From a virus: a DNA stretch of 64,000 nt. The stretch lies in the IMG/VR virus record IMGVR_UViG_3300045988_067569. The stretch is one strand, 5' to 3'. Shown here piece by piece: positions 2,945 through 64,000 of this stretch. Position 1 is the first letter of the stretch; every line of letters starts with the position of its first letter. The notes beneath the pieces are model-generated. The model saw only the letters and a program-made list of their open reading frames with translations. It ran no database searches and was not told where the DNA came from. Both the position numbers and the translations under genes were made by a program.

Positions 2945-3374
2945 CTACTACATATTTTAAGATTTCATAACTTTCTTCCAGACCTGCCCTATCATCTAGG
3001 AGGATATTGTAATAAGGTTTCTTAGATTTAGAGAATATAGAACTACTAATGTTTGGAGCAGATAAAGTATTAGAAGTAATATTTGCTATTCCTAATCGCA
3101 TACAAATTGTCTGCTTTGCCATAATTTTATAATCATCTTCATCAGTGGTGAATAAAATCATTTCAAAACCTAGAAGTGAGCATTCTTTAAGTAGTTCTAT
3201 AACGCAACTATAATCTCCGCCAGTATTATGGTAATCGAAAATAGTATTATCAAAATCGAAAGCGACTATTAGCTTTCCGTATTTATGATACTCTTCTAAT
3301 AGTCGTTTCTTGCAAGCTTCTTTCCCAAAAGGATGATTAAAGTCCATGGTCAATTCTTTGTCTGATTTCTTCAA
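2910..3374 (-). CDS. HAD-superfamily phosphatase-like protein
   Basis: DxDxT motif (FDFDNTIFD) near N-terminus. Confidence 0.5.
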   Translation of the reverse strand: MKKSDKELTMDFNHPFGKEACKKRLLEEYHKYGKLIVAFDFDNTIFDYHNTGGDYSCVIELLKECSLLGFEMILFTTDEDDYKIMAKQTICMRLGIANITSNTLSAPNISSSIFSKSKKPYYNILLDDRAGLEESYEILKYVVDEIKLNQQGNQ

Positions 3375-4887
3375 GAGAATATTCTTTCTTCAAGATACCA
3401 TCTTCAAAGACAGTCTCTAAGCATCCCTCTTTTTCCTCCTCGATTGAGACCTGGTCGGTAGCAGTATACTTCCCATCCAGACATTTATAGACAGCAATCA
3501 AACCTTTCAAAGAGTTCTTAGTACCATCATCAGTTTTAGGATGTTTGAAGATTTCTTTCAATTCGCCATTTACTACGCAAGCAGTAGCCTTAATAGCAAA
3601 CCCAAGACTATCTCTACTTGCATACTGATAGGAATATGAACCTACTCCCAGAACGAGATTACAAGCCGCCATATGAGCGTTTTCTAATCTCAAGTAGATT
3701 TGCTTTTGACGTTCCAGAGTAATAGAATCTCCATAAAGCAGACCAACCTTAGTGCTAGGATAACGGTAATCCTTTGAAGTAGTATTCCATCCGAAGATTT
3801 TACCAAGCATATAATATGCCCCATAATATTGACCTTCGGACACTTCAACATACTCTGCATCGTCGTTAAACGGAGCATAGCAGCAATAATACTTACCTTC
3901 TTTCATTCTGGTATTGAAGTGAGGATTAGTTCTCAACCCGCAGATTATATCTACTGGGTCTCCACTATCAGGACGGATTACTACTCTACCATCACGAGCC
4001 ATAATGTCTTTCTTCAGCTTGGGCAAGAAATTTTCAATTACATTCCAGAAATCCCAAGTATCAGATACAATAGAAACAAACCCAGAAGGATACAAATCAT
4101 TAATTAGACGTTTGAAAGTGCCCAGCTCATCTTCCTCCCCTCCAGCACACATTACAGAGTGTTCTGTTGCTGGAACTGTAGCAGCAATCAATTCCTCGTC
4201 TGAATTAGCTCCATAATATTCTTCCAAAGCAGCAATAGCTGGAATAGTTTCACTTCCCACAAAAGAAGTCATATGCGCCATACCAGATATAATTGCGGCT
4301 TCCATTCCCGCCATACCTCGCATTGAGAAATCATGACAACAAAAACCAAGATTTACATCTGTTGGAAAACCAGTCTTGCAAGCATGACGATGTAGCTCTT
4401 TCTTATAAAGCCTAGCTCTAGTAGCAGATGTGCATGGCATCCACAAGGTACAGCTGATAATAGTCTCTAAGTAGTTAGTTAACCAAAAGAACTCGGGTAG
4501 AGTATTTGTAATGGTCATCATGGGAACCCGAATAGGGCACACAGAACCTTCAGGAAGAGCCTTTATGCGAATTGGTAGATACCCAAGGTCATATAAAGCT
4601 TCAATATGTCTGTACCCAACGGATTCAATACCAACAAAGTTGTTTACTCTACGATAGAACATCTCCACAGCTTCCTTCTTTGGTAGATTAAAGAAGTTTT
4701 TCTCAAACTGTTTAATGAGATATTCTTTGATTAGGTATTGAATACCAAATACTACTGAACCTTCGGTTGCTTCTGGGAAGTATTTATTACTTCTAGGAGT
4801 CCAGTTACTATAAACTTGTTCAGTACCTTCGGGGTACATTCTGTGATGGCCCAACTTGTAACCATCTGTAGCATTAATTATTTCCAT
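3337..4887 (-). CDS. nicotinamide phosphoribosyltransferase family protein (NadV/Namat-like)
   Basis: 516 aa; N-terminal ATDGYKLGHHRMYPEGTEQVYS matches the NAMPT signature ATDSYKVTHYKQYP. Confidence 0.8.
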   Translation of the reverse strand: MEIINATDGYKLGHHRMYPEGTEQVYSNWTPRSNKYFPEATEGSVVFGIQYLIKEYLIKQFEKNFFNLPKKEAVEMFYRRVNNFVGIESVGYRHIEALYDLGYLPIRIKALPEGSVCPIRVPMMTITNTLPEFFWLTNYLETIISCTLWMPCTSATRARLYKKELHRHACKTGFPTDVNLGFCCHDFSMRGMAGMEAAIISGMAHMTSFVGSETIPAIAALEEYYGANSDEELIAATVPATEHSVMCAGGEEDELGTFKRLINDLYPSGFVSIVSDTWDFWNVIENFLPKLKKDIMARDGRVVIRPDSGDPVDIICGLRTNPHFNTRMKEGKYYCCYAPFNDDAEYVEVSEGQYYGAYYMLGKIFGWNTTSKDYRYPSTKVGLLYGDSITLERQKQIYLRLENAHMAACNLVLGVGSYSYQYASRDSLGFAIKATACVVNGELKEIFKHPKTDDGTKNSLKGLIAVYKCLDGKYTATDQVSIEEEKEGCLETVFEDGILKKEYSLEEIRQRIDHGL

Positions 4888-5745: not shown

Positions 5746-6569
5746 TTGTTATTAGCTACATCTTTAAATAAGGTGGGAACCTGACCATAAGTAGGAAGTT
5801 TTCCATCCCACTTCTTAATCATATCCTGCTGAACTATGAGAACTGACAAAGATGCTGAAATCTTTCTATTATATTCAGCTTCTGCATCACCCTTAATCTT
5901 AAGAGCTTCTGCCTCTCCTTGTGCAGCTGCTACTTTCTTTTTAGCTTCTGCCTCAATAGTCTTAACTTCATTCTCTGCCTTCAAAGCCTGTTGAATTGCA
6001 GCATTCTTAGCATCAATAGAATTGACTAGCGTCTGTGGATATTGAAGACCAGAAGTCATTTGTTCAAGCTGAAAATTCTCAGCCAAGAGTTCCTTTGACA
6101 GTCTATCTTCTATAGACTTCTCAAACTCCTCACGTTTACTTACTAGTTCATCAGTAGTATAGTTATTCAGCTGAATGCGAAAAGCATTCTTTACGTAATT
6201 ATACAAAGTAGTGTTAATTACCTCTACAATATCTTCCTTTCTATACTTCTTAAATACTTCTGGTGATTTCCCGTCAACAATCTTCAAAGAAATTGTAGGG
6301 TCTACAGTAAATGATGATCCATCTTTAGCATTAATACTGAAAGGAGGATAGTCCACAGTCTGTACGAATGTAGGATATTCATATACAGCCGTAGTAACAG
6401 GATTGTACCATACCGCACCAGTAACAAGAGACACATCGTCTACTCCTTTACCATCTCCGTATAGATTTACCTTGATGCCTTCATAACCAGCATCAATTCT
6501 CTCATAGCCACAACTAGATAAGCCAAACACTAAAGTTAATACGCACAAAATCTTAATAATTGTCTTCAT
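5742..6569 (-). CDS. SPFH/band-7 (prohibitin/HflC-like) lipoprotein
   Basis: lipobox LSSCG; SPFH-like core followed by an Ala/Glu/Lys coiled-coil tail. Confidence 0.6.
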   Translation of the reverse strand: MKTIIKILCVLTLVFGLSSCGYERIDAGYEGIKVNLYGDGKGVDDVSLVTGAVWYNPVTTAVYEYPTFVQTVDYPPFSINAKDGSSFTVDPTISLKIVDGKSPEVFKKYRKEDIVEVINTTLYNYVKNAFRIQLNNYTTDELVSKREEFEKSIEDRLSKELLAENFQLEQMTSGLQYPQTLVNSIDAKNAAIQQALKAENEVKTIEAEAKKKVAAAQGEAEALKIKGDAEAEYNRKISASLSVLIVQQDMIKKWDGKLPTYGQVPTLFKDVANNK

Positions 6570-18871: not shown

Positions 18872-18875
18872 ATTA

Positions 18876-18960
18876 TGTGGACCTAACGGGAGTCGAACCC
18901 GTGTCCAAACAACCCTCGTTACAAGGATAACGTGCGTCTCATTTTTATTATATCAGCTAG
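18876..18960 (-). ncRNA. tRNA-like 3' element (hairpin CCTT-GTAACG-AGGG, T-arm ACGGG/TTCGACT/CCCGT, acceptor 3' strand TAGGTCC-A)
   Basis: no adjacent 5' half; a GGGCCTA that could pair with it lies about 520 nt upstream at 19428-19434; homologous to the element at 29395-29471. Confidence 0.4.
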
Positions 18961-19479
18961 GGAGTTCTAGCATTTAGGTAGTTTTATAAGTCTTACAAGA
19001 GTCCATACTAAGTATTTCTCTAGATGCTTATCTACAAGCTACCAAACTATAGGGCTGACCGAAGTCAACGTTCCACCACTCCATTTACGTTGGAGAACGG
19101 GATGATACTTTAGAGATTCGTCACATCTCACGGAACACATCTTCCATCTGTTTTATGACGTAGGAGATTCAGTCTTACTAACTCTTAGAGTGTTCTGATT
19201 AAGAGCATATTACTAGGATTAGAGCCTAGCTCTCCATTATATCAATATACTCAACCTCTTCTGTTTCTAGGTCTCTCCCGTAACCCGACTTAGTTAATAG
19301 TGTTTACCAACAAGCCAGCAGCTTAGGCTGCCATTCTTACTTCGCTATAAGTAGCATTTATTGTTTTTTCTTCGTTTAAAGAGATTGCGCTCTACACGTC
19401 CTTATAATTTGTAATCGCCTGTCAAATCCAAGTAGGCCCATACCCAGTTTATCTTTAATTAGAAAACTGGAAAAAGAAA

Positions 19480-21324: not shown

Positions 21325-21397
21325 TGGACACGCAGGGACTCGAACCCTATCTTCCGGTGTGCAAAACCAGCGCTCTAGCCATTTGAGCTAACGGCCC
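21325..21397 (-). tRNA. tRNA-Ala(TGC) with a non-complementary acceptor stem (possible pseudogene or chimera)
   Basis: D-arm TAGCTCAAATGGCTAGAGCG, anticodon loop TTTGCAC and the T-arm are fine, but 5' GGGCCGT does not pair with 3' CGTGTCC. Confidence 0.45.
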
Positions 21398-22055
21398 ATG
21401 TTTGAGATTTTCTTTTTAATTGGTGACATAACTCATAAATTTCCACTGTTAGGATTCCATAACCTAACATCACCAGATAAGTTTTTTTTGTTTAAATCAT
21501 GTTCTAGTAGCATAAGTCCGCAACCATACTACTCTCTCAGTTCATCGACTATCGTATCAGAAAAGGTCTTTATGATTCCGCAGGGACTGGCTTCAACTTA
21601 AACCCCGAATGGATTTTTACCTTGCCAGGTCAGGATATTATTACGTTTCTAGCACTCTGAATTGATTTAGCCTGTTTAATCTTATAATCACGAACTACTT
21701 CTTTCATATAAGAGTTAAATTCCTTCATGTCTTTCCATGAAATCTCATTAGCTGGTTTCGGAGTTTGAAACATTTTGTACTTTTCTAATAGGTCTTTCAT
21801 TTCTCTCTTTAGTTTTCAAAGCGTTTTCACACGCTTGTTTCTTCATTACATATGGACAATCGCAATTTCCATTGTAATACCAACAACAATAATCACACTG
21901 ATGCATAATCTAGTATTTAAAAGTTAAAGTGGGTGCTAGCCGTTTCTATCCCACTATTGCGTACTACAGTGCTAGCTACCGTCCAAGTTACTCTCTTCCT
22001 CACATCGACTTGGAATTTGCTGGATTAATATTACTAGGAGGATTCAGCAAAAAGG

Positions 22056-22140
22056 CGTATGGTGCAGGATTCGAACCTGCGATGGGATTTCTCACGGTGG
22101 GTTAACAGCCCACTGCCGTCGGCCACTTGGCTAACCATAC
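22056..22140 (-). tRNA. type II (long variable arm) tRNA with anticodon GTT (Asn anticodon on a Ser/Tyr-type body)
   Basis: acceptor GTATGGT/ACCATAC, discriminator G, 3-bp D-stem, perfect anticodon stem GTGGG/CCCAC with loop CTGTTAA, 16-nt variable arm, T-loop TTCGAAT. Confidence 0.55.
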
Positions 22141-22456
22141 AATTAATTTTCTCCACAGGTGTAGATAAGTACCCCTTTGGTACTTACCTTTTAGTAGTAT
22201 CTTTACTCTAGACCTCTGTAGGGAGGTGGAATAGTTCCAGAAACTAACCATGTATAGCTCTTAGAACTCTGTTCAAAATACCACTTAGCAGCTTTCTTCA
22301 CAACATTAATTACTTTCTTCATAACATCAAAGTTTAAAATTGTTAATAATTAATCTAATTCAGAGCCACAAAAGGAGTTTCGTTGCGGAGGTAGGATTAT
22401 TTCCAAATAAATTTATATGCAGTTTTCAATTTCCCTTTTACACATAAACTAATCTT

Positions 22457-23032
22457 CTAGCGAACACCTCCATTATAAGTTTTAGCATAACCATTGTCTA
22501 CTAACCAGTGTGCAGCATCGGCTATACTGTTCCAAGTCCTGATAAAATTATTATTTAAATCATACTGAGATATTGATACAGGTTGCTTGCAACTTCCCAA
22601 ATAAAATTTGTTCTTTGGTATATTGTTTATATTTATTACTTTAGAAACTGTATCAACAGAACATTGCATTTTGGCGGAAACTTCAATCATTGTCATTCCG
22701 CTAGTATATAAAGATATTATTTCTTTATAATCGAATAAGATAGCTCCATCGCCTCCCATAGTAGCATTATAGCCATTTGAGTATGTGTCTAGCTTATCTA
22801 TAAATTGAATTTCATAAGAAGCTAATTCCTCATCATCACATTCATACAGCTACTCAACTATAAAGTTCTCGATCCCATACTTGTTCATAGCATCATATAG
22901 CGGCCTCTTTTCACATCTTTCCTTCTTGCAATCATTACAATGTTCTTTAAATCTCTTAGTTACAGAATAAGTAGTTTTTCCAACATACTATTTTCCATTA
23001 ATTAAATTTGTAATACAATAAATATATCCCAT
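22457..23032 (-). CDS. GIY-YIG homing endonuclease, full length only if two in-frame TAG codons are read as sense
   Basis: MGYIYCITNLINGK-TAG-YVGKTT...RPLYDAMNKYGIENF...-TAG-...GYNATMGGDG; the downstream part is ORF 22457..22759. Confidence 0.65.
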
Positions 23033-23116
23033 GTTCTATTCTTATTTAAAATTAAACATATTAGTAAGATTAGCGTTATCCAACTCACACCACGTGGAGG
23101 TTCTTACTTGTGAGTC

Positions 23117-23195
23117 TTGCGGAGGTAGGATTCGAACCGTTTATGACGATTTCTAGGTTATGAGCCTAGCGAGATGACCACTTCTCTACTCCACG
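23117..23195 (-). tRNA. tRNA-Met-like (CAT), initiator-like C1/A72 end but disrupted T-stem; possibly degenerate
   Basis: D-arm GAGA/AGTGGTCA/TCTC, anticodon stem CTAGG/CCTAG with loop CTCATAA, T-loop TTCGAAT, but T-stem halves AACGG/CCTAC do not pair and there is an extra CGTCATAAA segment. Confidence 0.35.
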
Positions 23196-23341
23196 ATATT
23201 GGCAGCTACTTTACATCCGCTACCCAGGGATGCCTCTATCACCAGTGAGGCACGGACTATTCTAACCGTATAGCACGACTGGTTGGTAACGTCTCCAGAC
23301 ACGGCATTTAGACTGAAAATGTCGAAACAGTGATTTAAAGA

Positions 23342-23977
23342 TTAAATAGGCTCTGGAAGATATTTCCAAATATAGCCATACTATGATTTGGTTTTATTCT
23401 TACAGCATCCTATAATATGACTCTATGCAGATTTATTGTCAGTAATTCCGTTATTAATTAACCATTCCTAAGCTTCTCTGGAACCAAAGAATACCTGTAT
23501 AAAATTACCTGCTAAGTCATACTAAGCAATTAACTTTGCGTTACTTTTTCTAATTTTTATATTATTTGCCTTCAAAACTTTGTAAATAGTGTCTTTACAG
23601 CACCCTATTTTTTCTTGTATCTAAGAACTAGTATATCCCAATCTAGCTAATTCTACAATTTCACTATGATTGTATAGAATAGTGCCATCTCCTCCTTTAG
23701 AGGCATTGTACCCATTAGAACCATAAGTTCCTAGCTCTTTTATCCAATAGATTTCTCTTTCAGATAATTCAGAGTTACTATCTACATATTCCAATTCCTC
23801 TATCATAAAGTTCTCAACACCATACTTATTCATGGCATCATATAAAGGTCTTTTGTTGCATCTTTCTTTCTAAAAGTCATAACAATGTTCCTTCCAGCGC
23901 TCTTCTATAGAAGTAGTAGTTTTTCCTACGTATCGCTTGCTATTAATTAAATTTGTAATGCAATAAATATATGCCAT
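23342..23977 (-). CDS. GIY-YIG homing endonuclease paralog requiring read-through of about six in-frame TAG codons
   Basis: MAYIYCITNLINSKRYVGKTT...RWKEHCYDF-TAG-KERCNKRPLYDAMNKYGVENF...; C-terminal half is homologous to the 22457-23032 paralog; ends TAA at 23342. Confidence 0.6.
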
Positions 23978-23997
23978 ATTTTTAAATTTAAAATTAG

Positions 23998-24082
23998 AAT
24001 CCGTGGAGGGATTCGAACCCTCATTAAAGATTTCTCTTTTCAGTTTTGCAGACTGATGGCTAAACCATTCACCCACACGGAT
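23998..24082 (-). tRNA. type II (long variable arm) tRNA with anticodon GCA (Cys anticodon)
   Basis: acceptor ATCCGTG/CACGGAT, anticodon stem TCAGT/ACTGA with loop CTGCAAA, 17-nt variable arm with internal stem AAAGA/TCTTT, T-arm GAGGG/TTCGAAT/CCCTC. Confidence 0.5.
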
Positions 24083-25415: not shown

Positions 25416-26051
25416 TTAATCCCAATATTCTGGGCAGTTTTCAGTCATTAATAATCCCTTTTCGCAAAAGCCTTTATCATAGAAAATGCAGGATGAACAC
25501 GAAAGATTGTCCCTAGATTCATATTCTTGAATACCTTCTTGAATATCTCTTTTTGCTTTATATCTGTCCTTTCTATTCTCTTTCTTGTATTCATATTGCA
25601 TCATTCTGCTTCTATAAGGAGAAGTACAATTCTTAAGCATCTTTGCGTATTTAGAACTATCAAGGAAATCCGTAATTGACTCACAGACCTTCAACGCCTT
25701 ATTCCTTATTATAGGAACATTATACCTTACATTGGCTTTAATCCCGGCAACAGGTACGTAAAATTTACCGCAAGCGTTGTAAACCTTTTTAGCTCTCGAA
25801 ATCCACTTTCTTTTAGAAAGTTCTCTTCTCAATTCTCTATCCATAAGCAATAAGATTAGTGTAGAATCTAGAGTGGGATTCGAACCCACGAAACACGGTT
25901 TTGCAGACCGTTCCCTTAGACCGCTCGGGCATCTAGACATAAAGGGGAGACTAGCTCCCCAAGTTTTATAGTACCAAAGAGTTGTAAGTACCTCTACGAT
26001 ACAGAGACGGTTTACTATTTGGATCTTTAACCCAGTAGTAGTTAACCTCAT
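25416..26051 (-). CDS. hypothetical Cys-rich protein
   Basis: ORF track. Confidence 0.4.
   Translation of the reverse strand: MRLTTTGLKIQIVNRLCIVEVLTTLWYYKTWGASLPFMSRCPSGLRERSAKPCFVGSNPTLDSTLILLLMDRELRRELSKRKWISRAKKVYNACGKFYVPVAGIKANVRYNVPIIRNKALKVCESITDFLDSSKYAKMLKNCTSPYRSRMMQYEYKKENRKDRYKAKRDIQEGIQEYESRDNLSCSSCIFYDKGFCEKGLLMTENCPEYWD
25864..25937 (-). tRNA. tRNA-Cys(GCA)
   Basis: acceptor GTCTAGA/TCTAGAT, discriminator U73, anticodon stem ACGGT/ACCGT with loop CTGCAAA, short variable loop; lies within the 3' end of ORF 25416..26051, so that ORF's extent is doubtful. Confidence 0.7.
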
Positions 26052-28781: not shown

Positions 28782-29429
28782 TTTCTTTCTTATTCCTTGA
28801 ATAACTCTGCGAGTTAATCCAAAATGCTGAGCAACTTTCTCCCAATTCTTAAGTATTTCGTACTGCTCATTTACTTCTTCTAGAGAAGGATAATGTTTAT
28901 CAGCATCTCTGCATTCCTTAGAACAGTATATCTTACCCTTAGATTTAGGAAATCTTTTGCCGCATACTGGGCATACAGACCCAGTCATATTTTCAAAAGA
29001 CGTCTTATCTTTAGCTTCAGTATTAACTAAATCTTCAACTTCGTCCATTCCCAAGTGAGGGTTATGTACTTCTCTATGACAATTAGCGCATAGAAGTTGA
29101 CATTTATCTGCTTCCTCTTTAAGCCTTTCTAGACTTGTATTAGATAAATGTCTCATATCTAACTGAAACTCTTTCTCATCTGGATTAATATGGTGAAATT
29201 CTAGAACAGCTATGTTTCTATCATAGCCGCATAGTTCACATTTACCACCACGAGATTTTACTAGCTCTAATTTGCGCTTTAAACCTCTTAACTTCTGTGT
29301 ATTATAATCATTGTAATTCATATACAAATATATATGAAAATAATCATAATACCAAATGTTTTGGTGCAAAATTAAAAATTCAATCCAGAAGTTGTAGGGA
29401 CGGTGGGGTTTGAACCCACGTGCGACCAA
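28773..29429 (-). CDS. HNH homing endonuclease (zinc-binding), located between the two halves of the split tRNA
   Basis: CELCGY...LEFHHINP...LLCANCHREVH HNH motif; C-terminal CPVCG...CSKEC zinc ribbon. Confidence 0.75.
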   Translation of the reverse strand: MVARGFKPHRPYNFWIEFLILHQNIWYYDYFHIYLYMNYNDYNTQKLRGLKRKLELVKSRGGKCELCGYDRNIAVLEFHHINPDEKEFQLDMRHLSNTSLERLKEEADKCQLLCANCHREVHNPHLGMDEVEDLVNTEAKDKTSFENMTGSVCPVCGKRFPKSKGKIYCSKECRDADKHYPSLEEVNEQYEILKNWEKVAQHFGLTRRVIQGIRKKDS

Positions 29430-29471
29430 CTACCCTTTCTACAAGGTATAAGCTTGAGGGGATACGTCCCT
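29395..29471 (-). ncRNA. tRNA-like element without a canonical D-arm (acceptor AGGGACG/CGTCCCT, hairpin CCTT-GTAGAA-AGGG, T-arm GTGGG/TTCAAAC/CCCAC)
   Basis: hand fold; homologous to the 18876-18960 element. Confidence 0.4.
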
Positions 29472-48594: not shown

Positions 48595-49908
48595 ATGGCT
48601 AAAGTGTAGTTTGACCCTGAATTGATGCGTAATATCAAAATTATTTACGGAGATGCGGACTTAGATGAGAGAACCTTGAGGTAGTTGCATTAGACTTGGG
48701 CAACTAATCCAGACATTATTAGAAGAACCGCACAATAGAAAATGCCTAAGTTACAAGAGGCATATTTTGATGCTCCAGAAATGCCTTCATTACCCACAAG
48801 ATTAGAACCTCTTCCTACTGCTGAAATAGCTTAGGATGATTTAAGAGGTGTTAAAGATTTTAAGACAGCTTTTAGGGCTGCTAGAGAGAGAGGACTAAAA
48901 CAGTTTATGTGGGGAAATTCTGTATATACTACAGACTTAGGACAGCCTTCAAGTAAGCCTAAACAACCTTCTACCATTCAGATTCCTTAGTCAGATACTT
49001 AGATTAGTATAGAAGCTCCAGACCTAATTGCTACAACAAAAGGAACTACTTGGGGTAGAGGAATACCAACTATTACAGGAGGCAGTTAGCCAGCTAGTGA
49101 ATAGACAAGAGCCGAGTAGCCTTCAAGTAAGCCTAAAGTAAATCCTGTACAGGCCACTACCAGTAGATATACTATGGGAGATACAGTACAAGGAGGAGAT
49201 TTTGGGATACATAGGGGGTTATAGAGATTATTTAATTATCTTGGAGATGTATGGAATTCTAGAAAATCAGAAGCTAAACCATTAACATTATCTCCGGGAC
49301 ATACAACTAAATTTCAACAAGGAGGAACAATGAATAATCAACAAGAATTACAAAAAGCGTTTGTGGCATATTTAATATAGGATGCGCAGTCATAGGGAGT
49401 TCAGATATAGTCTGAACAGGATTTACAAGCTTATGCTGAACAATTAGGTGAAGACGGCATTAAAGCTAAGTATCAGGAATTTATGCAGAAAATGCAAGGA
49501 GGAGTAATGGCTAGGCTTGGAGCTAAGCTTGAGTATTATAAGAAGCTAAAAGGAGTATGTCCAGAAGGAGAAGAGCTTGTATATTTTAAGCAAGGCGGTA
49601 GAATCTGTAAAGCTTGCCAGAAAGCACAAAAAGGAACTAAAGTTACTAAGAAAGCTAATGAAGTTGATAAATTTAAGGCAGGAAGAGCTTAGTATAAGAA
49701 AGATATGAAATCTGCTAGAGACGAAGCCTCAAGAGATTCTATATCAATCAATAAATACAATGATTAGGAAACTATGGCCAATAAAGGACATAAGGGTAAT
49801 TTCCAGGGAGGAAAATGGGTTCCTGACAGAAAACAATATGCTAAGAAAGACGCTTGTGGCTCAAAAATGAAAGTCAATAAGTGCGGTTCCAAAATGAAAA
49901 AGAAATAA
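48595..49908 (+). CDS. late protein (about 437 aa) translated only if TAG is read as sense; ends with tandem TAA TAA
   Basis: single frame carrying multiple in-frame TAG and no TAA/TGA from ATG 48595 to 49906-49911; contains ORF 49483..49692. Confidence 0.5.
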
Positions 49909-49945
49909 TAAGATTATCTAATGTGTATGATAATGATTAATGATT

Positions 49946-50506
49946 ATGAATGTATTTAACTATAACACTTTAACTAAATAGCTAGAAATAAATGAACCAG
50001 AGATATTACTAGTTAAGGAATTTAAGGCTTTAATCTAGAGGGATAAATCTGCAGAAAAGGATAGAGCTACTAGAGAACTATCTTACATTTATTTAGCTAT
50101 AGACTGGAAAAGTCCGTACAGTTAGTATTCGGAACATGAACGACATGACGAAGCTATTAGTGATTCTGGATTGACAGAGTCAGAATTTAATGACCCTATA
50201 TTTAGAGAAGCTTGTAGGAAATACAGAGCGTTACAAGATTCAAACAAGTCAATAAAATTACTGGAAGCAGCTAAAAGAGCTGCAGACTAGTTTATTGATT
50301 ATTTTGAAACTATTGTAGATTTAAATGAGCGTGATAATAACGGCAAGCCGGTATTCCAGGCTGAAAAAGTAATGAAGGAAATGGCTACCCTTCACAAAGT
50401 TCATGAAGAACTCATAACACTAGAAGACTAGGTTAAGAAAGAACTTACTGAACAATCTACTGTTAGAGCTGGAGCTGTGGATGGTTTTGACCCAGGAGAC
50501 TTTTAA
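49946..50506 (+). CDS. TAG-containing late protein; terminase small subunit by position only
   Basis: frame with five in-frame TAG codons immediately upstream of the terminase large subunit gene. Confidence 0.35.
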
Positions 50507-50508
50507 TT

Positions 50509-52872
50509 ATGCCAAGAAAAAAGATATTACCTGAAGAAATATAGAATATTGTAGATTAGGTAAGAGAAAAAGAATAGAAAGAGGATGCTAAAGAAGCTAG
50601 AGAATTAGTATAGAAAATAAGAGAGGAAAGGGTCAGAAATTCTGACTATTGGGATGTTAAAATAGGAGATAAAATAGAAGTATTTGACCCTACCTTATCT
50701 TATGAAATAACTGGATACAGACCTATTGACGAAACTCATGGATTGGACTTTAATCCAGATTGGTTTACCGAGACTAGGGAAGTATATAAACGAACTAGTC
50801 AATACTGTCCCTACCTTAGAGATAGTAAGCGGTACAACGAATTTTGGAAAGAGCAATATAGAAGATGTAAGTATGGAATGACAGTTAATGGATACACCAT
50901 TACTGGAGATAATTACTTCTTCTTAAATTTCTATTAGTTACCTACTATTGACTAGCAGAAAGCCTCTGGTGAGGGTACTGATAATGACTTCCCAATATTC
51001 TTTGCATCACATTATATGTTCTTTCATTATCTATAGATGGCTAGAGTGCTACACAAGCACGCAGCTTTAATGAAAGCTCGTTCTATTGGATTCTCTGAAA
51101 TAAATGCCTCTCTTTCTGCTCGTATGTACTCTGTTATTAGAAGAAGTAGGGTTATGATTACTTGCTTTAATGATACCTTCCTTAAGGGTACCTTTAGTAA
51201 GTTTGACAATGCTCTTACATTCTTAAATACCTGTACTGGAGGAGGATTTTTTAAATTGCGACTTATTGACCAGGATTTGAGAAAGAAATCAGGTAAACAA
51301 ATCAAAATAAATGGTTAGTTTGAAGACGTAGGATTTAAATCTGAGGTTGTAGCAATTAACGGAGCTAAACCATCTAACATTCGTGGAGACCGTGTAGATT
51401 TATTAATATATGATGAAGCTGGTTCCTGGCCTGGACTTGATACCGCTGTGGTACAAGGTCAAGAACTTTGTGAAGTTCAAGGTATGCCTCGTGGAACAAT
51501 GTTGTTTGGAGGTACTGGCGGTGATATGGGTGCTCCTCTAGAGGGCTTAAAAAAGATTTACTATAATCCAAGAGCATATAAGATTCTTCCATTTAGACAT
51601 AATTGGACTTAGGATGGGACTACTATAGAGAGTGGATTCTTTATTCCATACTTTATACAATCTTTGAATCCAGAATTTATGGACCACAGAGGAGTATGTA
51701 ATACTGTGGAATATAAGAAATTCTTATAGGAGGAGCGAGATAATCTGTTAGCTGTACCAGAAGACTACCTAAAGAAATGTGCTGAACGTTGTTGGAATGC
51801 AGAAGAAGCATTTAATCTAGAAGGTGTTAATAAGTTTAATAAAATTTTAGTTGCCGAATAGATAGCTAATATAAGACTTAAACAAATTGGTCCAAGACCC
51901 GAATGTGGTTATATTGATTATTTTTACAAAAATAATAAACATACTTAGGATAACATTGATGGTTTTAAATGGATTCCTAACAGCAATGGTAAAGTAAAAA
52001 TTCTAGAGCATCCAATATGGTCTGACTTATATAAAGAACAAATGGAAAAGCTTAGATAGGAGGCAGAAGATAATGGCTAGGATTTTGAAGTTCCAGTTTA
52101 TAAAGAGATGCGAGACTTATACGTAGCAGGTATAGACGGTATTGATATTGGAGCGAATTAGACTTCTAAGGAAACCAGAGACCCGTCTGATTTCTGCATA
52201 ACGATTAAGAAACGTGCATTTGGTATGAATGACCCTCAGTATGTTGCTATGTACAAGGATAGACCTGGAGACATCAGAGAAGCCTATAAAATAGCTATGT
52301 GTTTAGCTCGCTATTATAATTGTAAAATAAATATAGAAGCTACTCGTATGGGTATGGTTACTTGGGCTAGAGAAAAAGGATGCCTTAACTATTTTATGAA
52401 GCGCCCAAGAGCTACTCTAACTGACGTTAGAAATGGAACTACTAAATAGTATGGAACTCCTGCTACAAAAACTATAATCGAATAGCATACTGATTTAACA
52501 GCCGCCTTTATAGAAGACTATTGCCATACTATATGGTTCGAAGAAATGCTAGAATAGTTCACTGCATATAATGATGAAAATAAGGGTAAGTATGATATTG
52601 TAGCCGCTGTAGGTATGACTGAGTTAGCAGACCAAGAGCTATCAGGAAGACAGCCCGTACTTGTGGAGAAAGAAGTTGAATAGTTCCAAGATTTTGGTTA
52701 CTATTACGACGAGAGAGGAATTAAAAGATTTGGAGTTATTCCAACTAAGAAAACTCCTGAACTTAATATGCAAAGAAACGAATATGATGACCCATACAGA
52801 GTTGAAACAAGTGATCCTAGAATATATGAGGGACTTGTACAAAATGGAGTATATAGGCGGACTAGATATTGA
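50509..52872 (+). CDS. terL: terminase large subunit (about 787 aa, many in-frame TAG codons)
   Basis: ATPase motifs KARSIGFSE (Walker A-like) and DLLIYDEAG (Walker B); nuclease-domain motifs DPSDFCITIKKR and DIVAAVGMTE; ends TGA at 52870. Confidence 0.8.
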
Positions 52873-53063
52873 GAGTTTAGACCCAGTTGGGTATAAAGTC
52901 TCTTTTAACTTTGATAGGTCAGAAATGCCATTAGTAATAATAGCAGATTTACCAGACGAAGAATTTCTGCCATTTATTAAGGAAGAATTAAGAAGTAGGA
53001 AGTTGCAAAGAGTTAAGTATTATAACGCTACTAAACTTCCTCCAGAACAACATAATTTATGTT

Positions 53064-55235
53064 ATGAAAGAGAAGGAATTAATAGACAAGACAAACGAGG
53101 CTATTGCGGAACTTGTATATGATAAGTATGAGTTACAGAAAGCTTATAATTATTATAATGGTAAAAGAGATCCTGAATAGTTCCGTTATCTGGAAGAAAA
53201 CTTCGGAATAGGTAGCCCCACTTCGGTAGAGTTTACGCCTTTATTAAAGAAACACGTAGATGCTCTAGTTGGAGAATATTTAGGAACTCCTATACTTCCG
53301 AAAATTTCTTGCAAAGATTCAGATACTATCAGTAATATAACAAGAGAAAAATAGCTAGAAATAACCAAGGGAATAGTAAAGTTTTTGAAAGACCATTTAA
53401 GTAATTCAATTCTTAAGTTTATTGATGGCAAGGATATTACTGATAAAGCTGTAAAGACTTAGTTAGATAAAATTATATAGGATATTGACCAATCCTTTAT
53501 TTCTCAATATGAAATTGCAGCTTAGAATATAGTACATTATATTATGCAATCCAGAGAAACCGATTTAATTACTAAGTTACGTTAGTTACTAACAGACTTA
53601 TTAATTACTGGTTATACATTCTTTAGAGTGAAATCATCGGCTTCTGGAACTAATATTGAAATAGAGGTATTAAACCCACTTAATACATTTGTTGATAGAA
53701 ATCCAGAATCTCCATATGTAAGGAACTCATATAGAGTTGTAGTAAGAAAGTGGATGAGTAAGAGTTAGATTTTAGCTAAATATGGCAAAGAAATATCTAG
53801 AGAAGATTTAAGAAGACTAAAAGATGAATGGCGAGCTGATGATTCAGCTGCTGTTTATAGAAGAGTATATGGAGATACTTGTACAGTAGTAAATGAAGAT
53901 TAGAATCATGAAACCATTCCCGGCTATCCAGACAATGAATATAGTGCTCATAGGTTCTAGTTAATCCCAGTCTATGATGTTGAATGGATTGAAACAGATG
54001 ATGATTTTGTGATGTAGAGATACAATACTATTAGAATAGGAGAAGAGATATATATTCTTAGAGGATTAGACAAGACTGTTATGAGATCTAAAGATAATCC
54101 CAACTTCTGTTCTTTATCGGTAAATGGAGTATATTTCTTAAATCGCTCTTAGTAGCCTTATTCTCTTATATTAAAATGTGCACATCTGTAGGATAGATAC
54201 GACTTATTAAACTATTATAGAGATAATCTAATAGCTAATAGTGGTACTGCCGGAGTTATTATGGATATGTCTCTGTTGCCTACCAACTTAGGAGTTAAAT
54301 GGCCAGAACGAGTACAAAAATGGTTAGCCTATAAAAAAGGTGGTATCATGTGGATAGACTCAAGCCAAGAAGGTAGGAATGATGGACAGCAAGCTCCAAA
54401 CTAGATATATAACGGATTTGATGATACCTTAAAAGCATAGGCTGTATAGGCTATTGAATTAGCTATTCAATCAGTAGAACAAACTACATCATCAATAACT
54501 GGAGTATTTAGGGAACGACTTAACGGTATAGAAACTAGAGATGCAGTTACTAATATTAAGTAGGGAGTAGCTAACTCGTATATAGTAACTAAGCACTATT
54601 TTTAGCAGATGGATTTAATAACCTGCGAGATACTACTAGATAGTCTTAATTAGGCTAAAGTTACTTATAAGAAAGGATTAACTGGAACTATTATACTTGG
54701 GGATAAATATCAACAGATATTCACCGCACTTCCTGAGTATTTTACTGTTACTGACTACGATATTCATATTACTGCTAGTTCAGAAGTGATGGAAGATCTA
54801 TAGACTATAAAAGCAATCATTCCAGAGTTCGTAAAAAGTCAACAGATGGATCCAGATATTATTTTTGAGGCTCTTACATCTAAGAGTCTGACAGACCTTA
54901 AATATAAGGTTAAGAAAGCTGTTCAAGTTCGCAAAGAGGAAAATAATCAGCTTCAGCAACTACAAGAAAAATTAGAAGAAACTTCTCAATAGGCTCAGTA
55001 GTTATAGCAAGAATTATAGAAAGCTCAGCAAAAGATTGAAAGCTTAGATGAATAGAGACTGGGATTAGAATAGTAGAAGATGCAGTTAGAATATAAAGTT
55101 AACTGGCTTAAAGCTCAGTCTGATTCTACTTATAAAGATAGACAAATGGATATTGAAGAAAAAAGAACTGAAATAGAGTTGGCTTAGCTTCATGATGGAA
55201 ATCCATATAATGACAAAATAAGACAAATACATTAA
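53064..55235 (+). CDS. portal protein (about 723 aa, many in-frame TAG codons)
   Basis: N-terminal YELQKAYNYYNGKRDPE-TAG-FRYLEENFGIGSPTSVEFTPLLKKHVDALVGEYLG; follows terL; ends TAA at 55233. Confidence 0.7.
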
Positions 55236-55236
55236 T

Positions 55237-55965
55237 ATGGCAACTGGAACAATTGTATACAACAAAGATTAGTAGTAGATTTATCCTATCTCTGATGGGA
55301 CAGTAATTATAAGTAATGCTTCCGGTTCTAAATCAAATGTAGAAGACGACTTAAAAAAATTATTTAAGTAGGTATCAGATTTATCCGGTTCAAGTGAAGC
55401 AGTTAATAGTATTATTATTAAAATACATTATCTCCCTGCTAATACTGCCGATGAATCTGAAATAAAACTATCAAGTAAGTAGTGGTCTGATACTTTTGAG
55501 CTTCCAACAGAAGAGAATCCATATATATGGAAAAGAACTAAATTTACTTTTTAGGGAGCTGATGAATCATAGGGAACTACTATCTATGAAATAGTAGCGA
55601 GTGATGTCTCTACTATTATATAGACTATATATACTAGAACCGAGGGAATAACACCAGTTATAGAGTATAAACAAAAAACGAATGAAAAAGGAGATCCTCT
55701 CTATATAGATTCTGACGGGAGAGAAACCACAGAAGTAACCTCTATTAAAGCCTATGACTATAACTACTACTGGAATGGACAGCCCTCCTCTGGGATTGAT
55801 AAATTACCTCCTACTCCAGATGGATAGTCTTATACCTGGACTGACTATCCACAAGATATTAGTTTATCTTTTACTTCTGTTTTTATGTCTAGACGTATAA
55901 AGCAATCTGGAAAGTGGGGACCTTTTTCTACACCAGCTCAATACGGTCAATGGCCTAACACTTAA
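55237..55965 (+). CDS. TAG-containing late protein (about 242 aa)
   Basis: hand-traced frame beginning ATGGCAACTGGA with three consecutive TAG codons near the start; ends TAA. Confidence 0.4.
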
Positions 55966-55977
55966 TATTATTGCAAT

Positions 55978-56709
55978 ATGGAATTTAGTATTGATATACA
56001 TACCCAAATTAATGGGGAAATACTGATAGAAGATTTCTCAAAAGAATATGGCTAGTATATTGATGAAGATGTAGAGGTAGTAACTTCTTACGACTCCTAT
56101 AAGTATAGTGAGAGTGCTACCTTGAATACTATCATCAAAGTTAGTATAAGCGATGCTACTCTGATAGATGTCCTACTTAATGACCATACAGAAGACTTAG
56201 ACTCGTGTATGTTTAAGGTCAAGGATGATGGTTATTACGTAGTAGACCATATCATTATTCCTAATATGAAATGGTATGAAAATTCATCGGACGAATACAA
56301 GGAATACTATGAGACTATCTATGTTACTGATGGAGAAAAATTATATAAAGAAGTAGAAGGTAAGCTAGAAGAGTGTACAGTTAAAGAAGTTCTTGAACGA
56401 AACATAGAAGGAACTACTATAAAAAAATGTAAGGTAGATGTTTTCTTTACAGGAAACTTGTAGTAGTGTTACATTAATTATTGTAAGAAACTCTTTGATG
56501 CTTTACTAAATAAGTGTCTAACTAGAGATTAGGAAGCAGATATATTTGCTCGAGATTTCATATGGATGACTCTTAACATTATAGATTATTTAATATGCTT
56601 TAAACAATTCATGGAGGCTGAAAGATTACTAGCGATGTTCCGTACCTGTGGAGGATTCTGTGACAATCACCACCATGGACATAAACGTATAGGTTGTGGA
56701 TGCTCTTAA
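55978..56709 (+). CDS. TAG-containing late protein (about 243 aa)
   Basis: frame contains ORF 56122..56463; ends TAA. Confidence 0.4.
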
Positions 56710-56864
56710 GAGAAAGGCTATTAAAAGGTATGAGGATTTTCTAAGAAAACTCAAAAAGGGATATAAACCAGATTATCAAGATATTCTTAATCTAATTTGT
56801 TTTATTAACCTACCTGTAAGACTAGATAATCACGAATTTATTAAATAGCAATTATTAAACTAGA

Positions 56865-58439
56865 ATGATACAGTCTATTTACACTTCGGTAAGTAACGCA
56901 GATATAGTGCCTTGTGGTAAAAAGGGTAAGCCTATAAAATGTGAGCCTATACCTCTCTTAAGAAATAACTATTTAGGAGAATATAGGACAGAACTAGAAA
57001 AAGCTAAAGTAAGAAAGAACTTAGGTATTGCTGATGAGTAGAGTCTATTGTGGGGAAACATTAGTGGAACCATAGAACTGCAAAAAGACCTAGTATAGTA
57101 TATAGAACAAAAATGGACCTATACTAGTGACGTTGCAGAAGGCATTAATACTGTGAAGGATGCCCTAGACTATGCCCTATACTTTATTAGCGAATATGAA
57201 TCTAATACAGAAGCAATAGAAGAACTGAAAGTCGATATAAGCAATATTAGAACTTCTATATCTGTATTGAAGGAGGATTTACAGCGAGAAATTGATACTA
57301 ATAGAAAAGGAATTAATAATCTATCTGAAGAAATAGTAAAAATCAATGAAGCTATAGTTGAGTTGAACAATGCTATTGAGAATATAGATGTTGATAAAAA
57401 CATTCTTAATTGGATTAAGAATAGTCTCCAAAATTCCAAAACTATAGAACTAAAGGAAAATAATTCCTTAGAGGTGATTTTATCTACTTAGGAAGATAAT
57501 GCTATTCATTTAATAGAATAGGAGATTGGAGAGGAAACCTCTTCTATTATCCTTCCAGGTATCTATGTTAAGAATCTTGAACCTGCTCTAGAAGAAACAA
57601 AGAAAGAAGTATAGAAAACTTAGGAAGCACAACAAGAGACAAATACTAAAGTAGAAGCTAATACTGAAAGTATTACTAATATACAAACTAACTTAGAAAC
57701 TATAGCTACTTATTAGACGGAACTCCCAGATGATACTACTTCAACAGTAATTGAAGGGACTACAGTAGAGAAACTTAAGGGCAAGCCCTTTAATGAAATT
57801 ATTGATACTTTACTGTTTCCAACAGTAGTTAGAGATTTAGTATACCCATAGCTTTATTATAGTTTTACTTCTCAAATAGTAGAAGTGGGAACTGCTTTAT
57901 TAACTCCTACACTTACATTTATAAAGAATGATGCTGGAGAAGAAACTGACAGACGAGAAACTATTACTTATAACAGTTCTCCTGTAGAGTCTGATACATA
58001 TAATTCTATTGGTACTTATACTCACTCTGGTACAGTGAGTTATGCCGCTGGAGAATATTTGATAAATAATAAAGGAGAAGTTACAGATAAGAGAGTAGAA
58101 GCTGGTTCTATTTCCGCTACCGCTTAGGTAGTAGCCACATATCCTTGGTATTCTGGTAATACTGATGGTGTGATTAAATAGGCGCTAGTTCCTTTTGGAC
58201 AATCGTCTGGAACTATCACATTTTCACTAAGTGGTAAGGCTATTATAAAATTGCCAGGAAGTAACACATAGTTAAATTCATTTACCGTAGATGGAGGACT
58301 TGGATATTTAAATGTAGACCTAAGTGGTTGGGAAACGTCTACCGAGTAGATAAATGGATTTACTTACAAGGTATGGACTAAGAAAGATACTTACTCCTCA
58401 GCATTGCCACATCAAATTAACTTTATTCTATCACAATAA
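56865..58439 (+). CDS. TAG-containing structural protein (about 524 aa)
   Basis: frame contains ORF 57153..57491; TAA at 58437. Confidence 0.45.
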
Positions 58440-60277: not shown

Positions 60278-60496
60278 ACAATATGGGAACAATTTATATT
60301 GAAGGACAGTTTAAGAGTTCTGCCAAACCAGTAAAAGTTGTTGGAGGAAGTATAGGAGGAGGCTCTGGAGTAGACTAGGAAGTTCTCAAGAACTATGCTA
60401 CTAAAGCAGAATTGTAGAAGGCTGTTGAGGACCTAACTGCTTCCATAGAGAGAATAGATCACGATGTAGTTGATGAAACTTTAATAATACAATGAT

Positions 60497-62314: not shown

Positions 62315-62390
62315 GATATACAATATAAAAATCGATTTAGATGATAAATCGTAGGATATTACTTCTAAAAACCGTTGATTGGCAAAAAAA

Positions 62391-62490
62391 GTACTGCTGG
62401 TGGGCAGCAACGCGAATAATGGCAGCAATGCAGGTCTCAGCTATTTCAATTCTAACAATGACGTCAGCAATGCCAATTCCAATGTCGAGT
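62391..62490 (+). repeat. DGR template repeat (TR), A-rich with many AAT/AAC/AGC codon-like triplets
   Basis: about 23 mismatches to VR1 by hand alignment; each falls where TR has A and VR1 has G, C or T. Confidence 0.8.
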
Positions 62491-62632
62491 TATTATATAT
62501 TTAGAAACATTTTATTATTTTTTTTTAGTTTGCTAAGTAATATCCTTGCCTCTAGGCAAAAGATAACGTAGTGTTGAATGAAGGGTGTTAGTAGGTTAAT
62601 TCTCGAACGCTTCCGATGAAATATATAAAAAA

Positions 62633-63906: not shown

Positions 63907-64000
63907 ACTATGATATAAAAGAAATTAGTGTTGAAGTACTTGATTTAGACAATACCATAAAAGAAAAAACTTACTATAGTTTTATCTAGGTATTATTAAA

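Follow-up and report, generated by a model that had tools for sequence, protein, structure and literature searches.

Long-arm phage tRNAs with asparagine and cysteine anticodons probably keep the identity that their anticodons indicate

In bacteria, textbooks reserve the long variable arm for the tRNAs of serine, leucine, tyrosine, and selenocysteine. A 64,000-nucleotide stretch of viral DNA (IMG/VR virus record IMGVR_UViG_3300045988_067569, here called the window) encodes on its minus strand two tRNAs that combine such an arm with the anticodons GUU (Asn) and GCA (Cys). Which amino acid do they carry? A sequence-only reading of this region had argued that seryl-tRNA synthetase (SerRS) recognizes the long arm and G73 rather than the anticodon, such that the two tRNAs could insert Ser at Asn or Cys codons, or might be misfolded or of unusual identity. 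We consider it probable that both genes encode functional tRNAs for Asn and Cys on a class-II-like scaffold, with an identity that agrees with the anticodon, and unlikely that they place Ser at Asn or Cys codons.

ARAGORN, run over the whole window, called 26 tRNA genes, among them tRNA-Asn(gtt) at 22054-22140(-) and tRNA-Cys(gca) at 23997-24082(-). The 87 and 86 nt called correspond in both cases to 85 nt up to the discriminator base, at 22056..22140 and 23998..24082, respectively. The Rfam tRNA model RF00005, whose gathering score is 29 bits, matched both cloverleafs over their full length and well above that score (56.0 bits at 22056-22140(-), E = 2.2e-9, for the Asn gene and 56.3 bits at 23998-24082(-), E = 1.8e-9, for the Cys gene, both E values for the whole window). 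The Rfam alignment sets 7-nt loops, CUGUUAA and CUGCAAA, each on a 5-bp stem, and treats 13 to 14 nt between the anticodon arm and the T arm of both genes as an insertion. Because these are the loops that the sequence-only reading had given (CTGTTAA and CTGCAAA), its register is that of the covariance model. Any other register of the anticodon loop is ruled out by this alignment. The anticodons thus lie at 22104..22106(-) (loop 22102-22108) and 24047..24049(-).

Both genes have class II architecture: the variable region exceeds 10 nt and folds into a stem-loop, and the D stem has 3 bp. Both also combine a 7-bp acceptor stem with a 5-bp T stem (a 7/5 branch); neither encodes CCA. The long arms seen by the sequence-only reading are indeed present. 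The 16-nt variable region of the Asn gene (22081..22096(-), C-GUGA(GAAA)UCCC-AUC) is built from a stem of 4 bp that includes one U.C mismatch, a capping GNRA tetraloop, and a 3' spacer of 3 nt, and the 17-nt region of the Cys gene (24023..24039(-), AAAGA(GAAA)UCUUU-AAU) contains a 5-bp stem, a GAAA tetraloop, and a 3-nt 3' spacer. Around these arms, the Asn gene consists of the acceptor strands GUAUGGU and ACCAUAC (with the pairs G1-C72, U2-A71, A3-U70, and U4-A69), UA at positions 8 and 9, a D arm of GCC-AAGUGGCCGAC-GGC whose 3-bp stem includes C11-G24, A26, the anticodon arm GUGGG-CUGUUAA-CCCAC, the T arm GCAGG-UUCGAAU-CCUGC, and G73 at position 22056. The corresponding elements of the Cys gene are AUCCGUG and CACGGAU (A1-U72, U2-A71, C3-G70, and C4-G69), UG, GGU-GAAUGGUUUA-GCC, A26, UCAGU-CUGCAAA-ACUGA, GAGGG-UUCGAAU-CCCUC, and U73 at position 23998. 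Thermodynamics alone folds the Cys gene into a five-arm cloverleaf at minimum free energy (z = -2.8). A covariance model built from seven long-arm Asn genes (model R1) scored the Asn gene of the window at 94.6 bits.

We compared these features with the identity sets collected by Giege and Eriani (2023; PMC9976931), whose rules come mainly from E. coli. The bacterial set for asparaginyl-tRNA synthetase (AsnRS), namely G34, U35, U36, A37, and G73 (PMC9976931), is complete in the Asn gene. The Cys gene has the G34, C35, A36, and U73 of the set for cysteinyl-tRNA synthetase (CysRS). Of the acceptor pairs expected by CysRS, it has C3-G70, with U2-A71 where G2-C71 is expected. The ordinary tRNA-Cys(GCA) of the window (75 nt, 25864..25938(-)) likewise has U2-A71 and C3-G70, and the two copies also have U73, U8-G9, and a 3-bp D stem in common. 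U73 and GCA are the main determinants for CysRS, whereas G73 is common to tRNA-Asn and tRNA-Ser. The G73 on which the sequence-only reading drew is present in the Asn gene and absent from the Cys gene, whose U73 had been omitted and is a minority state (~18%) among the phage tRNA-Ser genes listed. Neither gene has the acceptor pairs of SerRS substrates (G2-C71 and R4-Y69), and their 4- to 5-bp arms with 3-nt spacers appear to match tRNA-Tyr rather than the length and orientation typical of Ser. For tyrosyl-tRNA synthetase (TyrRS), A73 is found in neither gene and G34/U35 in the Asn gene only. The 8/4 or 9/3 branch of allo-tRNAs and selC* tRNAs is likewise absent from both.

These elements suggest the following model. 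The Asn gene, with G34, U35, U36, A37, and G73, would be a tRNA-Asn, and the long-arm Cys gene, with G34, C35, A36, U73, and C3-G70, a second tRNA-Cys, each on a class-II-like scaffold whose variable region holds an extra hairpin of 4 to 5 bp capped by GAAA. Sequence rules predict charging by the AsnRS and CysRS of the host; in the infected cell, the tRNAs would then decode AAY and UGY with their usual meaning, as part of a near-complete phage set that would aid translation of a TAG-recoded genome.

The two genes belong to two large and diverse phage lineages, with the same architecture recurring in tRNAs for Thr, Met, Ile, Lys, and Trp. IMG/VR was scanned for a CTGTTAA or CTGCAAA loop followed by 19 to 27 nt and then GGTTCGAATCC, and ARAGORN was run on the fetched loci. 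At least 114 distinct long-arm tRNA-Asn genes were found after the first scan and at least 119 after both, together with at least 75 distinct long-arm tRNA-Cys genes. The family statistics compare only features that the scan pattern left unconstrained, and all counts given below for these groups are among the matches listed. U73 was found in 72 of 75 long-arm tRNA-Cys genes (96%) and in 38 of 39 ordinary ones; long-arm tRNA-Asn had G73 in 101 of 119 (~85 to 90% depending on the subset counted) and essentially no A73, and ordinary tRNA-Asn had G73 in 58 of 64. Tyr had A73 (73/76), long-arm Thr had U73 (19/21), and long-arm Trp had G73 (5/5). The discriminator tracks the isotype of the anticodon in every group tabulated. 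Among matches to a covariance model of the long-arm Cys family, U73 was present in 40 of 42.

The structure of both families is supported by covariation. In an alignment of 130 distinct long-arm Asn sequences, 96.5% of cells were paired, compared with 37 to 47% for slid partners; double changes occurred in all five helices, and the variable arm was 95.6% paired. The long-arm Cys model, with 33 distinct sequences, was 98.7% paired, and its variable arm covaried and was 97.8% paired. Since the alignments were fitted to models, these percentages lean towards structure, but the slid controls (33 to 47% paired over both family alignments) and the number of pair types support it nevertheless. The variable arm of the Asn gene, although energetically weak, is likewise supported as real by covariation in its family.

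When the Asn gene was compared with GenBank phages by BLAST, full-length matches annotated as tRNA-Asn were recovered, all with GUU, G73, and a GNRA-capped arm. They measured 85 nt in Proteus phage Stubb and 89 nt in Cronobacter GAP31, Escherichia 4MG, Klebsiella VIK251, Enterobacter EC152, and Xanthomonas XacN1. The arm in GAP31 (GGGA/GCAA/UCCC) is homologous to that of the Asn gene, as are those of two further loci, L029 (GGGA/GAAA/UCCC) and L057. GAP31, whose annotated cluster comprises 26 tRNA features, has no tRNA-Asn there besides the 89-nt gene. A further 291 T5-like GenBank records hold an 80- to 83-nt version with the arm GUC(GAAA)GAC-AAC. A BLAST search of GenBank phages with another long-arm Cys gene (L193) gave no match. 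The same arrays also carry long arms on isotypes that the scans did not select: at least 21 Thr(UGU), 22 Met, 14 Ile, 9 Asp, 6 Lys, 6 Pro, 6 Val, and 5 Trp genes were listed, and the long-arm Asn, Cys, Thr, and Met isotypes often stand together in one array. The converse case was also seen in the fetched IMG/VR loci, where many Leu tRNAs have a short variable region of <10 nt (at least 24 Leu(UAG), 14 Leu(UAA), and 14 Leu(CAA) genes); GAP31 (L026) annotates tRNA-Leu of 77 to 78 nt at 3564-3641 and 6340-6416.

The pattern scan of GTDB genomes gave 119 hits, of which only 14 proved to be genuine long tRNA-Cys genes, mostly in dense, phage-like tRNA arrays. Three Armatimonas sp. assemblies (L347, L362, and L367) have in common a long-arm tRNA-Cys(GCA) with U73 and few tRNAs nearby, and the L347 copy lies in a 1.25-Mb contig. 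This gene may be a native bacterial class-II-like tRNA rather than a phage gene.

Orthologues in close relatives were sought in IMG/VR with patterns that left the anticodon as NNN. The Cys gene had GCA in 16 of 16 contigs, and it is identical in 17 related genomes, GenBank MT837398 being among the carriers with GCA. An identical copy, again with GCA, was found separately in GTDB contig DXLM01000001.1, which was deposited as a Bacteroides sp. metagenome-assembled genome (L354). This 186,052-bp contig has 8 tRNAs in 8 kb and probably represents a complete genome from the phage clade of the window, binned as a bacterium; it offers only a weak hint at the host. The Asn gene had GTT in 2 of 2 IMG/VR contigs. 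Further close copies (L045, L047, L104, L107, and L108) differ from it in the anticodon stem only, where U28-A42 becomes C28-G42 and G27-C43 becomes G27.U43, changes that are compensatory. In MT835492, a different gut phage of 121 kb, an 82-nt homologue retains the D arm, GTT, and G73, with compensatory changes in its acceptor, anticodon, and T stems. The sequence-only reading had held that orthologues with GUA or GCU would imply a sequencing error or a pseudogene; neither anticodon was found among the orthologues of either gene. The anticodon of both genes is evidently under selection.

Several observations weigh against the assignment to Asn and Cys. Since the family scans demanded CTGTTAA or CTGCAAA and GGTTCGAATCC, conservation of the loops within the families is by construction. 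The U1-A72 pair of tRNA-Asn that matters in the GatCAB route is replaced by G1-C72 in the Asn gene of the window, which would be of consequence if the host charges Asn by that route; the ordinary Asn gene of the clade has U1-A72. The variable arm of the Asn gene is mismatched and thermodynamically marginal, and it is missing from the minimum-free-energy fold. A position-weight classifier of the tRNA body that ignores the anticodon and position 73, a crude tool with a cross-validated accuracy of 74%, ranked the Asn gene Cys > Tyr > Ser > Asn and left the Cys gene in a tie between Trp and Cys. The clade keeps two tRNA-Cys(GCA) genes, for which the assignment does not account. Finally, the Asn gene retains the Ser determinants G73, G1-C72, C11-G24, and G30-C40 and a large variable region of 16 nt, the closest BLAST match outside tRNA-Asn is to a phage tRNA-Ser(GCU) (75.9% identity), and U73 is not strictly a signal against SerRS, given the ~18% of listed phage tRNA-Ser genes that have it. 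Allo-tRNAs with U73 are considered Ser acceptors (PMC5389517).

The last of these points favour the proposal that SerRS, which ignores the anticodon, charges these tRNAs through the long arm and the discriminator, and that they act as missense tRNAs placing Ser at AAY and/or UGY codons. The allo-tRNAs and the Candida tRNA-Ser(CAG) would be parallels. GUU is GCU with a C35U change, and the D arm of the Cys gene resembles that of the Ser-GCU tRNA of the window. Moreover, allo-tRNAs with a variable arm and either G73 or U73 do insert Ser (PMC5389517). We nonetheless regard this proposal as unlikely for several reasons. Phage tRNA-Ser has G2-C71 in 96%, R4-Y69 in 91%, and U1-A72 in 1% of genes, and the first two, which neither gene of the window has, are much rarer in long-arm Asn (46%, 32%, and 56%, respectively) and long-arm Cys (19%, 44%, and 0%). 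The values for ordinary Asn (34%, 31%, and 46%) and ordinary Cys (18%, 32%, and 0%) suggest that the acceptor signatures of the long-arm families match those of ordinary phage Asn and Cys tRNAs. The arm of tRNA-Ser has a mean stem of 5.2 bp and a 3' spacer of 1 nt (Leu, 4.0 bp and 1 nt), whereas the stems of long-arm Asn (3.5 bp, with a spacer of 3 to 4 nt) and long-arm Cys (3.4 bp, 3 nt) are closer to those of Tyr (3.1 bp, 3 nt). The body classifier assigned 61 of 75 long-arm Cys genes to Cys and only 5 to Ser, and of the 108 long-arm Asn genes listed, 35 went to Tyr, 27 to Asn, 21 to Cys, 16 to Gln, and none to Ser. The discriminator of the families, including U73 in nearly all long-arm Cys genes, also follows the anticodon. 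For the two genes of the window, the U73 of the Cys gene, U2-A71 with Y4-R69, the Tyr-like arm, and these family signatures together disfavour the Ser insertion that the sequence-only reading had raised. Its phrase "unusual identity" suits the scaffold; the identity itself appears normal by discriminator and acceptor signatures.

The place of the Asn gene in its genome and the codons of the phage point the same way. The long-arm gene is the sole Asn tRNA in the near-complete set of the window, and other phage sets that lack nothing else also depend on it alone for Asn. Its slot is filled by an ordinary 73-nt tRNA-Asn(GUU) in most of the sister genomes (L001, L006, L008, L009, L012, and others), the two kinds of gene swapping at one locus. 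Comparison with L001, L009, and L012 by blastn showed that homology stops at 21916 and restarts at 22143, 3 nt off the 5' end of the tRNA; the long-arm gene and its 137-nt 3' trailer (21917..22142(-)) are replaced in the sisters by an 87-nt segment with the ordinary gene. Given the shared slot and the break in homology around it, the long-arm and ordinary Asn genes are alternative cassettes at one locus. No structured RNA or ribozyme was found in the trailer, which gave no Rfam hit and no significant structure by folding. Codon meaning was read from the phage nicotinamide phosphoribosyltransferase (NAMPT; full length, 3337-4887(-), an auxiliary NAD-salvage gene), which aligned to solved NAMPTs with an E value of 2e-145. 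Its AAY codons fall on conserved Asn in 8 N:N cases versus 1 N:S, and its UGY codons on conserved Cys in 2 C:C and 0 C:S cases; AAY and UGY keep their standard meaning in this genome. Since AAY makes up 5.3 to 5.9% of phage codons and stands at conserved Asn positions, efficient insertion of Ser would hit one residue in 18 and damage the phage's own proteins.

A weaker form of the proposal is that the long-arm tRNA-Asn has a dual identity, being charged by AsnRS through GUU and G73 and by SerRS through the long arm, G73, C11-G24, and G30-C40, and that class I isoacceptors (Asn, Cys, Thr, and Met) have been made class II as a functional handle. We think this quite unlikely, although serylation of the Asn tRNA, with its G73, C11-G24, G30-C40, and long arm, may keep some weight. 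If it were true, phages with this gene in place of the ordinary tRNA-Asn would have a programmed, low-level Asn-to-Ser ambiguity at the 5 to 6% of codons that are AAY.

Rather than decode with an altered meaning, the two tRNAs might hardly serve decoding at all. They could be decoys, inhibitors, or substrates of phage enzymes or of host defence nucleases that target tRNAs, or the arm could shield the gene from an adjacent GIY-YIG endonuclease, with decoding secondary. On the minus strand, the order is long-arm tRNA-Cys, GIY-YIG gene, Met-like tRNA, GIY-YIG gene, and long-arm tRNA-Asn. One free-standing GIY-YIG homing-endonuclease gene (22397..23032(-); Pfam PF01541, E = 6.8e-10, plus NUMOD1) lies between the Met-like tRNA and the long-arm tRNA-Asn and has 3 in-frame TAG codons; the other (23342..23977(-); PF01541, E = 6.2e-13), also with in-frame TAG codons, starts 20 nt downstream of the long-arm tRNA-Cys. 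Both domains were found by Pfam with TAG read as Gln. In favour of such a role, the 27-bp site preferred by T4 SegB, which includes GGTTCRANTCC, lies inside a tRNA-Asn gene (PMC2330249). The clade also retains a tRNA-Cys that is redundant with the other, and single arrays bear extra arms on Asn, Cys, Thr, and Met alike. Nevertheless, the full Asn and Cys identity sets are kept, which a pure decoy would not need, and many arrays have no Asn tRNA besides the long-arm gene. The GIY-YIG gene at 22397-23032 is missing from L004, L045, L104, L009, and L012, and among the relatives all four combinations of endonuclease presence or absence with a long-arm or ordinary Asn gene occur; a link between the endonuclease and the extra-arm allele, or immunity to the enzyme, therefore has no support. 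Our searches also turned up no defence system aimed at the bodies of tRNA-Asn or tRNA-Cys. A mainly non-translational role is thus, in our judgment, quite improbable.

A contribution of TyrRS to the identity of the Asn gene would be more improbable still. Here, the gene would derive from a tRNA-Tyr by A36U and A73G and would accept some Tyr through G34, U35, and the arm. As the sequence-only reading stated, GUU is one base from Tyr-GUA at position 36, but it is also one step from Ser-GCU at position 35, and GCA likewise differs by a single base from Ser-GCU and from Tyr-GUA. The arm is shaped like that of tRNA-Tyr, the classifier assigns about a third of the long-arm Asn bodies to Tyr, the D loop AAGUGG(Y)C(R)A is like that of the tRNA-Tyr of MT835492, and G34 and U35 are bacterial Tyr determinants (PMC9976931). 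However, phage tRNA-Tyr almost always has A73, whereas long-arm Asn has essentially none and mostly carries G73, an antideterminant against TyrRS (PMC9976931), and U1-A72 occurs in 56% of long-arm Asn genes versus 8% of Tyr genes. The signals of ancestry are themselves split: BLAST points to Ser(GCU) for the Asn gene, whereas Tyr is indicated by the geometry of the arm and by some of the classifier calls; the Cys gene is equidistant (~70% of structural positions) from ordinary Cys and Ser.

That the genes have no function, whether as pseudogenes, as artefacts of assembly or sequencing, or as recently mutated Ser or Tyr genes in neutral drift, might be argued from the U.C mismatch in the Asn variable arm, the degenerate T stem of the adjoining Met-like tRNA, and the churning of the region by homing endonucleases, but it is scarcely credible against identical or near-identical copies with GCA or GTT in ~20 independent assemblies, stems upheld by compensatory substitutions, hundreds of divergent family members in which every helix covaries, and Rfam scores of ~56 bits. 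Sequencing error and pseudogene status are ruled out by these assemblies and compensatory changes, and with them the misfolding that the sequence-only reading had entertained.

The window is from a TAG-recoded phage. Coverage by open reading frames (ORFs) rises from 54% to 79% once TAG is read as sense; ten large plus-strand ORFs in 48595-63907 have 4 to 28 in-frame TAGs each (25.9 per 1000 codons), and the minus-strand ORFs have 0 to 6, a late-gene bias of the recoding. A suppressor tRNA(CUA) lies at 43832-43904(+), just upstream of the TAG-rich plus-strand ORFs. Related contigs measure 100 to 192 kb and come from human gut samples. Besides the two long-arm genes, ARAGORN called two Tyr(GUA), a Ser(GCU), a Ser(UGA), and the ordinary Cys(GCA) gene in the window, in agreement with the canonical Tyr, Ser, and type I Cys genes that the sequence-only reading had listed. 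Among the 8 larger ORFs scanned with Pfam, which gave NAMPT, an AAA ATPase, the two GIY-YIG proteins, a weak radical-SAM match, and a PD-(D/E)XK nuclease, no aminoacyl-tRNA synthetase or tRNA-modifying gene was found near the tRNAs.

Other features of the array were also recorded. The two GIY-YIG genes are paralogous, with ~76% DNA identity over segments of ~190 bp, and their presence varies among sister genomes. Exchange of tRNA cassettes, the Asn gene being one, has its breakpoints where tRNAs end. The Met-like tRNA (CAU anticodon, 23117..23196(-); ARAGORN, and 39.2 bits with Rfam) combines a variable region of 14 nt and a type-II-like D arm with a T stem of only 2 bp, and it is kept in relatives. 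Directly after it lies a subthreshold match to a ribozyme like that of hepatitis delta virus (HDV) (23052-23116(-), 25.2 bits, E = 0.057); the tRNA and the HDV-like match resemble the tRNA-associated theta ribozymes of recoded gut phages (PMC10879173). A phage-encoded tmRNA at 18875-19439(-) (62.6 bits with Rfam), which ARAGORN did not call, adjoins tRNA-Ile(GAU). ARAGORN also missed two tRNA matches found by Rfam, one at 21325-21397(-) (39.5 bits) that reads as tRNA-Ala(UGC) and one at 29395-29471(-) (31.7 bits) that barely exceeds the threshold and is odd around the anticodon. Directly downstream of a RAGATH-14 RNA (40674-40880(-), 156.6 bits) lies a 71-nt tRNA whose UUA anticodon would read ochre (40577-40647(-)). 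Since its orthologue at L010:11530-11600 reads CUG (Gln), the clade has seen a shift of this anticodon. A tRNA-like gene adjoining tRNA-Gly(GCC) in sister phages (L004:3658-3739(-) and L045:6753-6835(+)) has normal acceptor, D, and T arms and an "anticodon loop" of ~15 nt. It is called Ser(act) or Tyr(ata) by ARAGORN, and it could be a tRNA whose loop has expanded or one that has gained a small insertion.

How do these tRNAs relate to known systems? Bacterial class II tRNAs (Ser, Leu, and Tyr) likewise have a 7/5 branch, a 3-bp D stem, a long D loop, and a variable stem-loop, with tRNA-Tyr nearest in arm geometry (3 to 4 bp and a 3-nt 3' spacer). The tRNAs of the window differ from them in having GUU or GCA, G73 or U73 instead of the A73 of Tyr and Leu, and neither G2-C71 nor R4-Y69 of Ser. 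Nematode nev-tRNAs and other eukaryotic noncanonical V-arm tRNAs are also class II with class I anticodons (Hamashima et al., PMC3333845). However, nev-tRNAs are eukaryotic and have Leu identity and Leu charging contrary to their anticodon (PMC3333845), whereas the features of these phage genes agree with the anticodon; discriminator and acceptor stem appear to argue against a similar misdecoding here. Allo-tRNAs and selC* tRNA-Cys have 8/4 or 9/3 branches and long stems like those of tRNA-Sec (Mukai et al. 2017, PMC5389517; reviewed in PMC7609411), in contrast to the 7/5 branch of the window, and selC* tRNA-Cys works with a dedicated SelB* and CysRS* (PMC5389517; PMC7609411). Class II tRNAs with "wrong" anticodons are thus already known, and they are either mischarged or branched 8/4 or 9/3 (PMC3333845, PMC5389517); each of these exceptions attracted notice when it was published.

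Closer kin are the long tRNA-Asn genes of T5-like Demerecviridae, Vequintavirinae (GAP31 and 4MG), and XacN1, which belong to the Asn family of the window (GUU, G73, GNRA-capped arm, 80 to 89 nt). These were deposited from cultured phages plainly as "tRNA-Asn," whereas the copy in the window is from an uncultured, TAG-recoded gut phage. For the proposed charging by AsnRS and CysRS, a precedent in the opposite direction to the arm gain in phages is a case from a cellular genome in which a class II isotype lost its arm and one synthetase was shown experimentally to serve both short- and long-arm isoacceptors. SegB-type GIY-YIG enzymes of phage tRNA clusters likewise stand free between tRNA genes and accompany exchange of segments at a tRNA boundary (PMC2330249, PMC13096335); in the clade of the window, endonuclease presence is without correlation to the type of tRNA-Asn, and the enzymes are predicted from sequence. 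In the openly searchable literature, which leaves subscription-only sources such as the 1980s work on T5 tRNAs outside, no description of phage long-arm Asn or Cys tRNAs was found. Phage families of long-arm tRNAs in which a 7/5 branch goes together with identity elements that agree with the anticodon are apparently undescribed.

Hundreds of such genes already stand in GenBank as plain tRNA-Asn, and some are carried by phages of E. coli and Salmonella that are easy to culture (T5-like and rV5-like). For annotation, they are a warning that arm length should not be used to assign the Ser, Leu, or Tyr isotype in phage genomes. If the tRNAs are charged as predicted, AsnRS and CysRS would tolerate a class II body, which would be useful for tRNA engineering and orthogonal pairs; if the tRNA-Asn were also serylated, it would represent a natural, virus-encoded codon ambiguity. 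The families also raise the question of why phages repeatedly retain an extra arm on particular isotypes, with escape from tRNA-targeting immunity and recognition by phage factors as candidates. Speculatively, the arm may be a relic of descent from a class II tRNA, or it may be a handle that marks phage tRNAs apart from those of the host, for example in escape from tRNA-targeting defence nucleases; a role for the arm in such an arms race is plausible.

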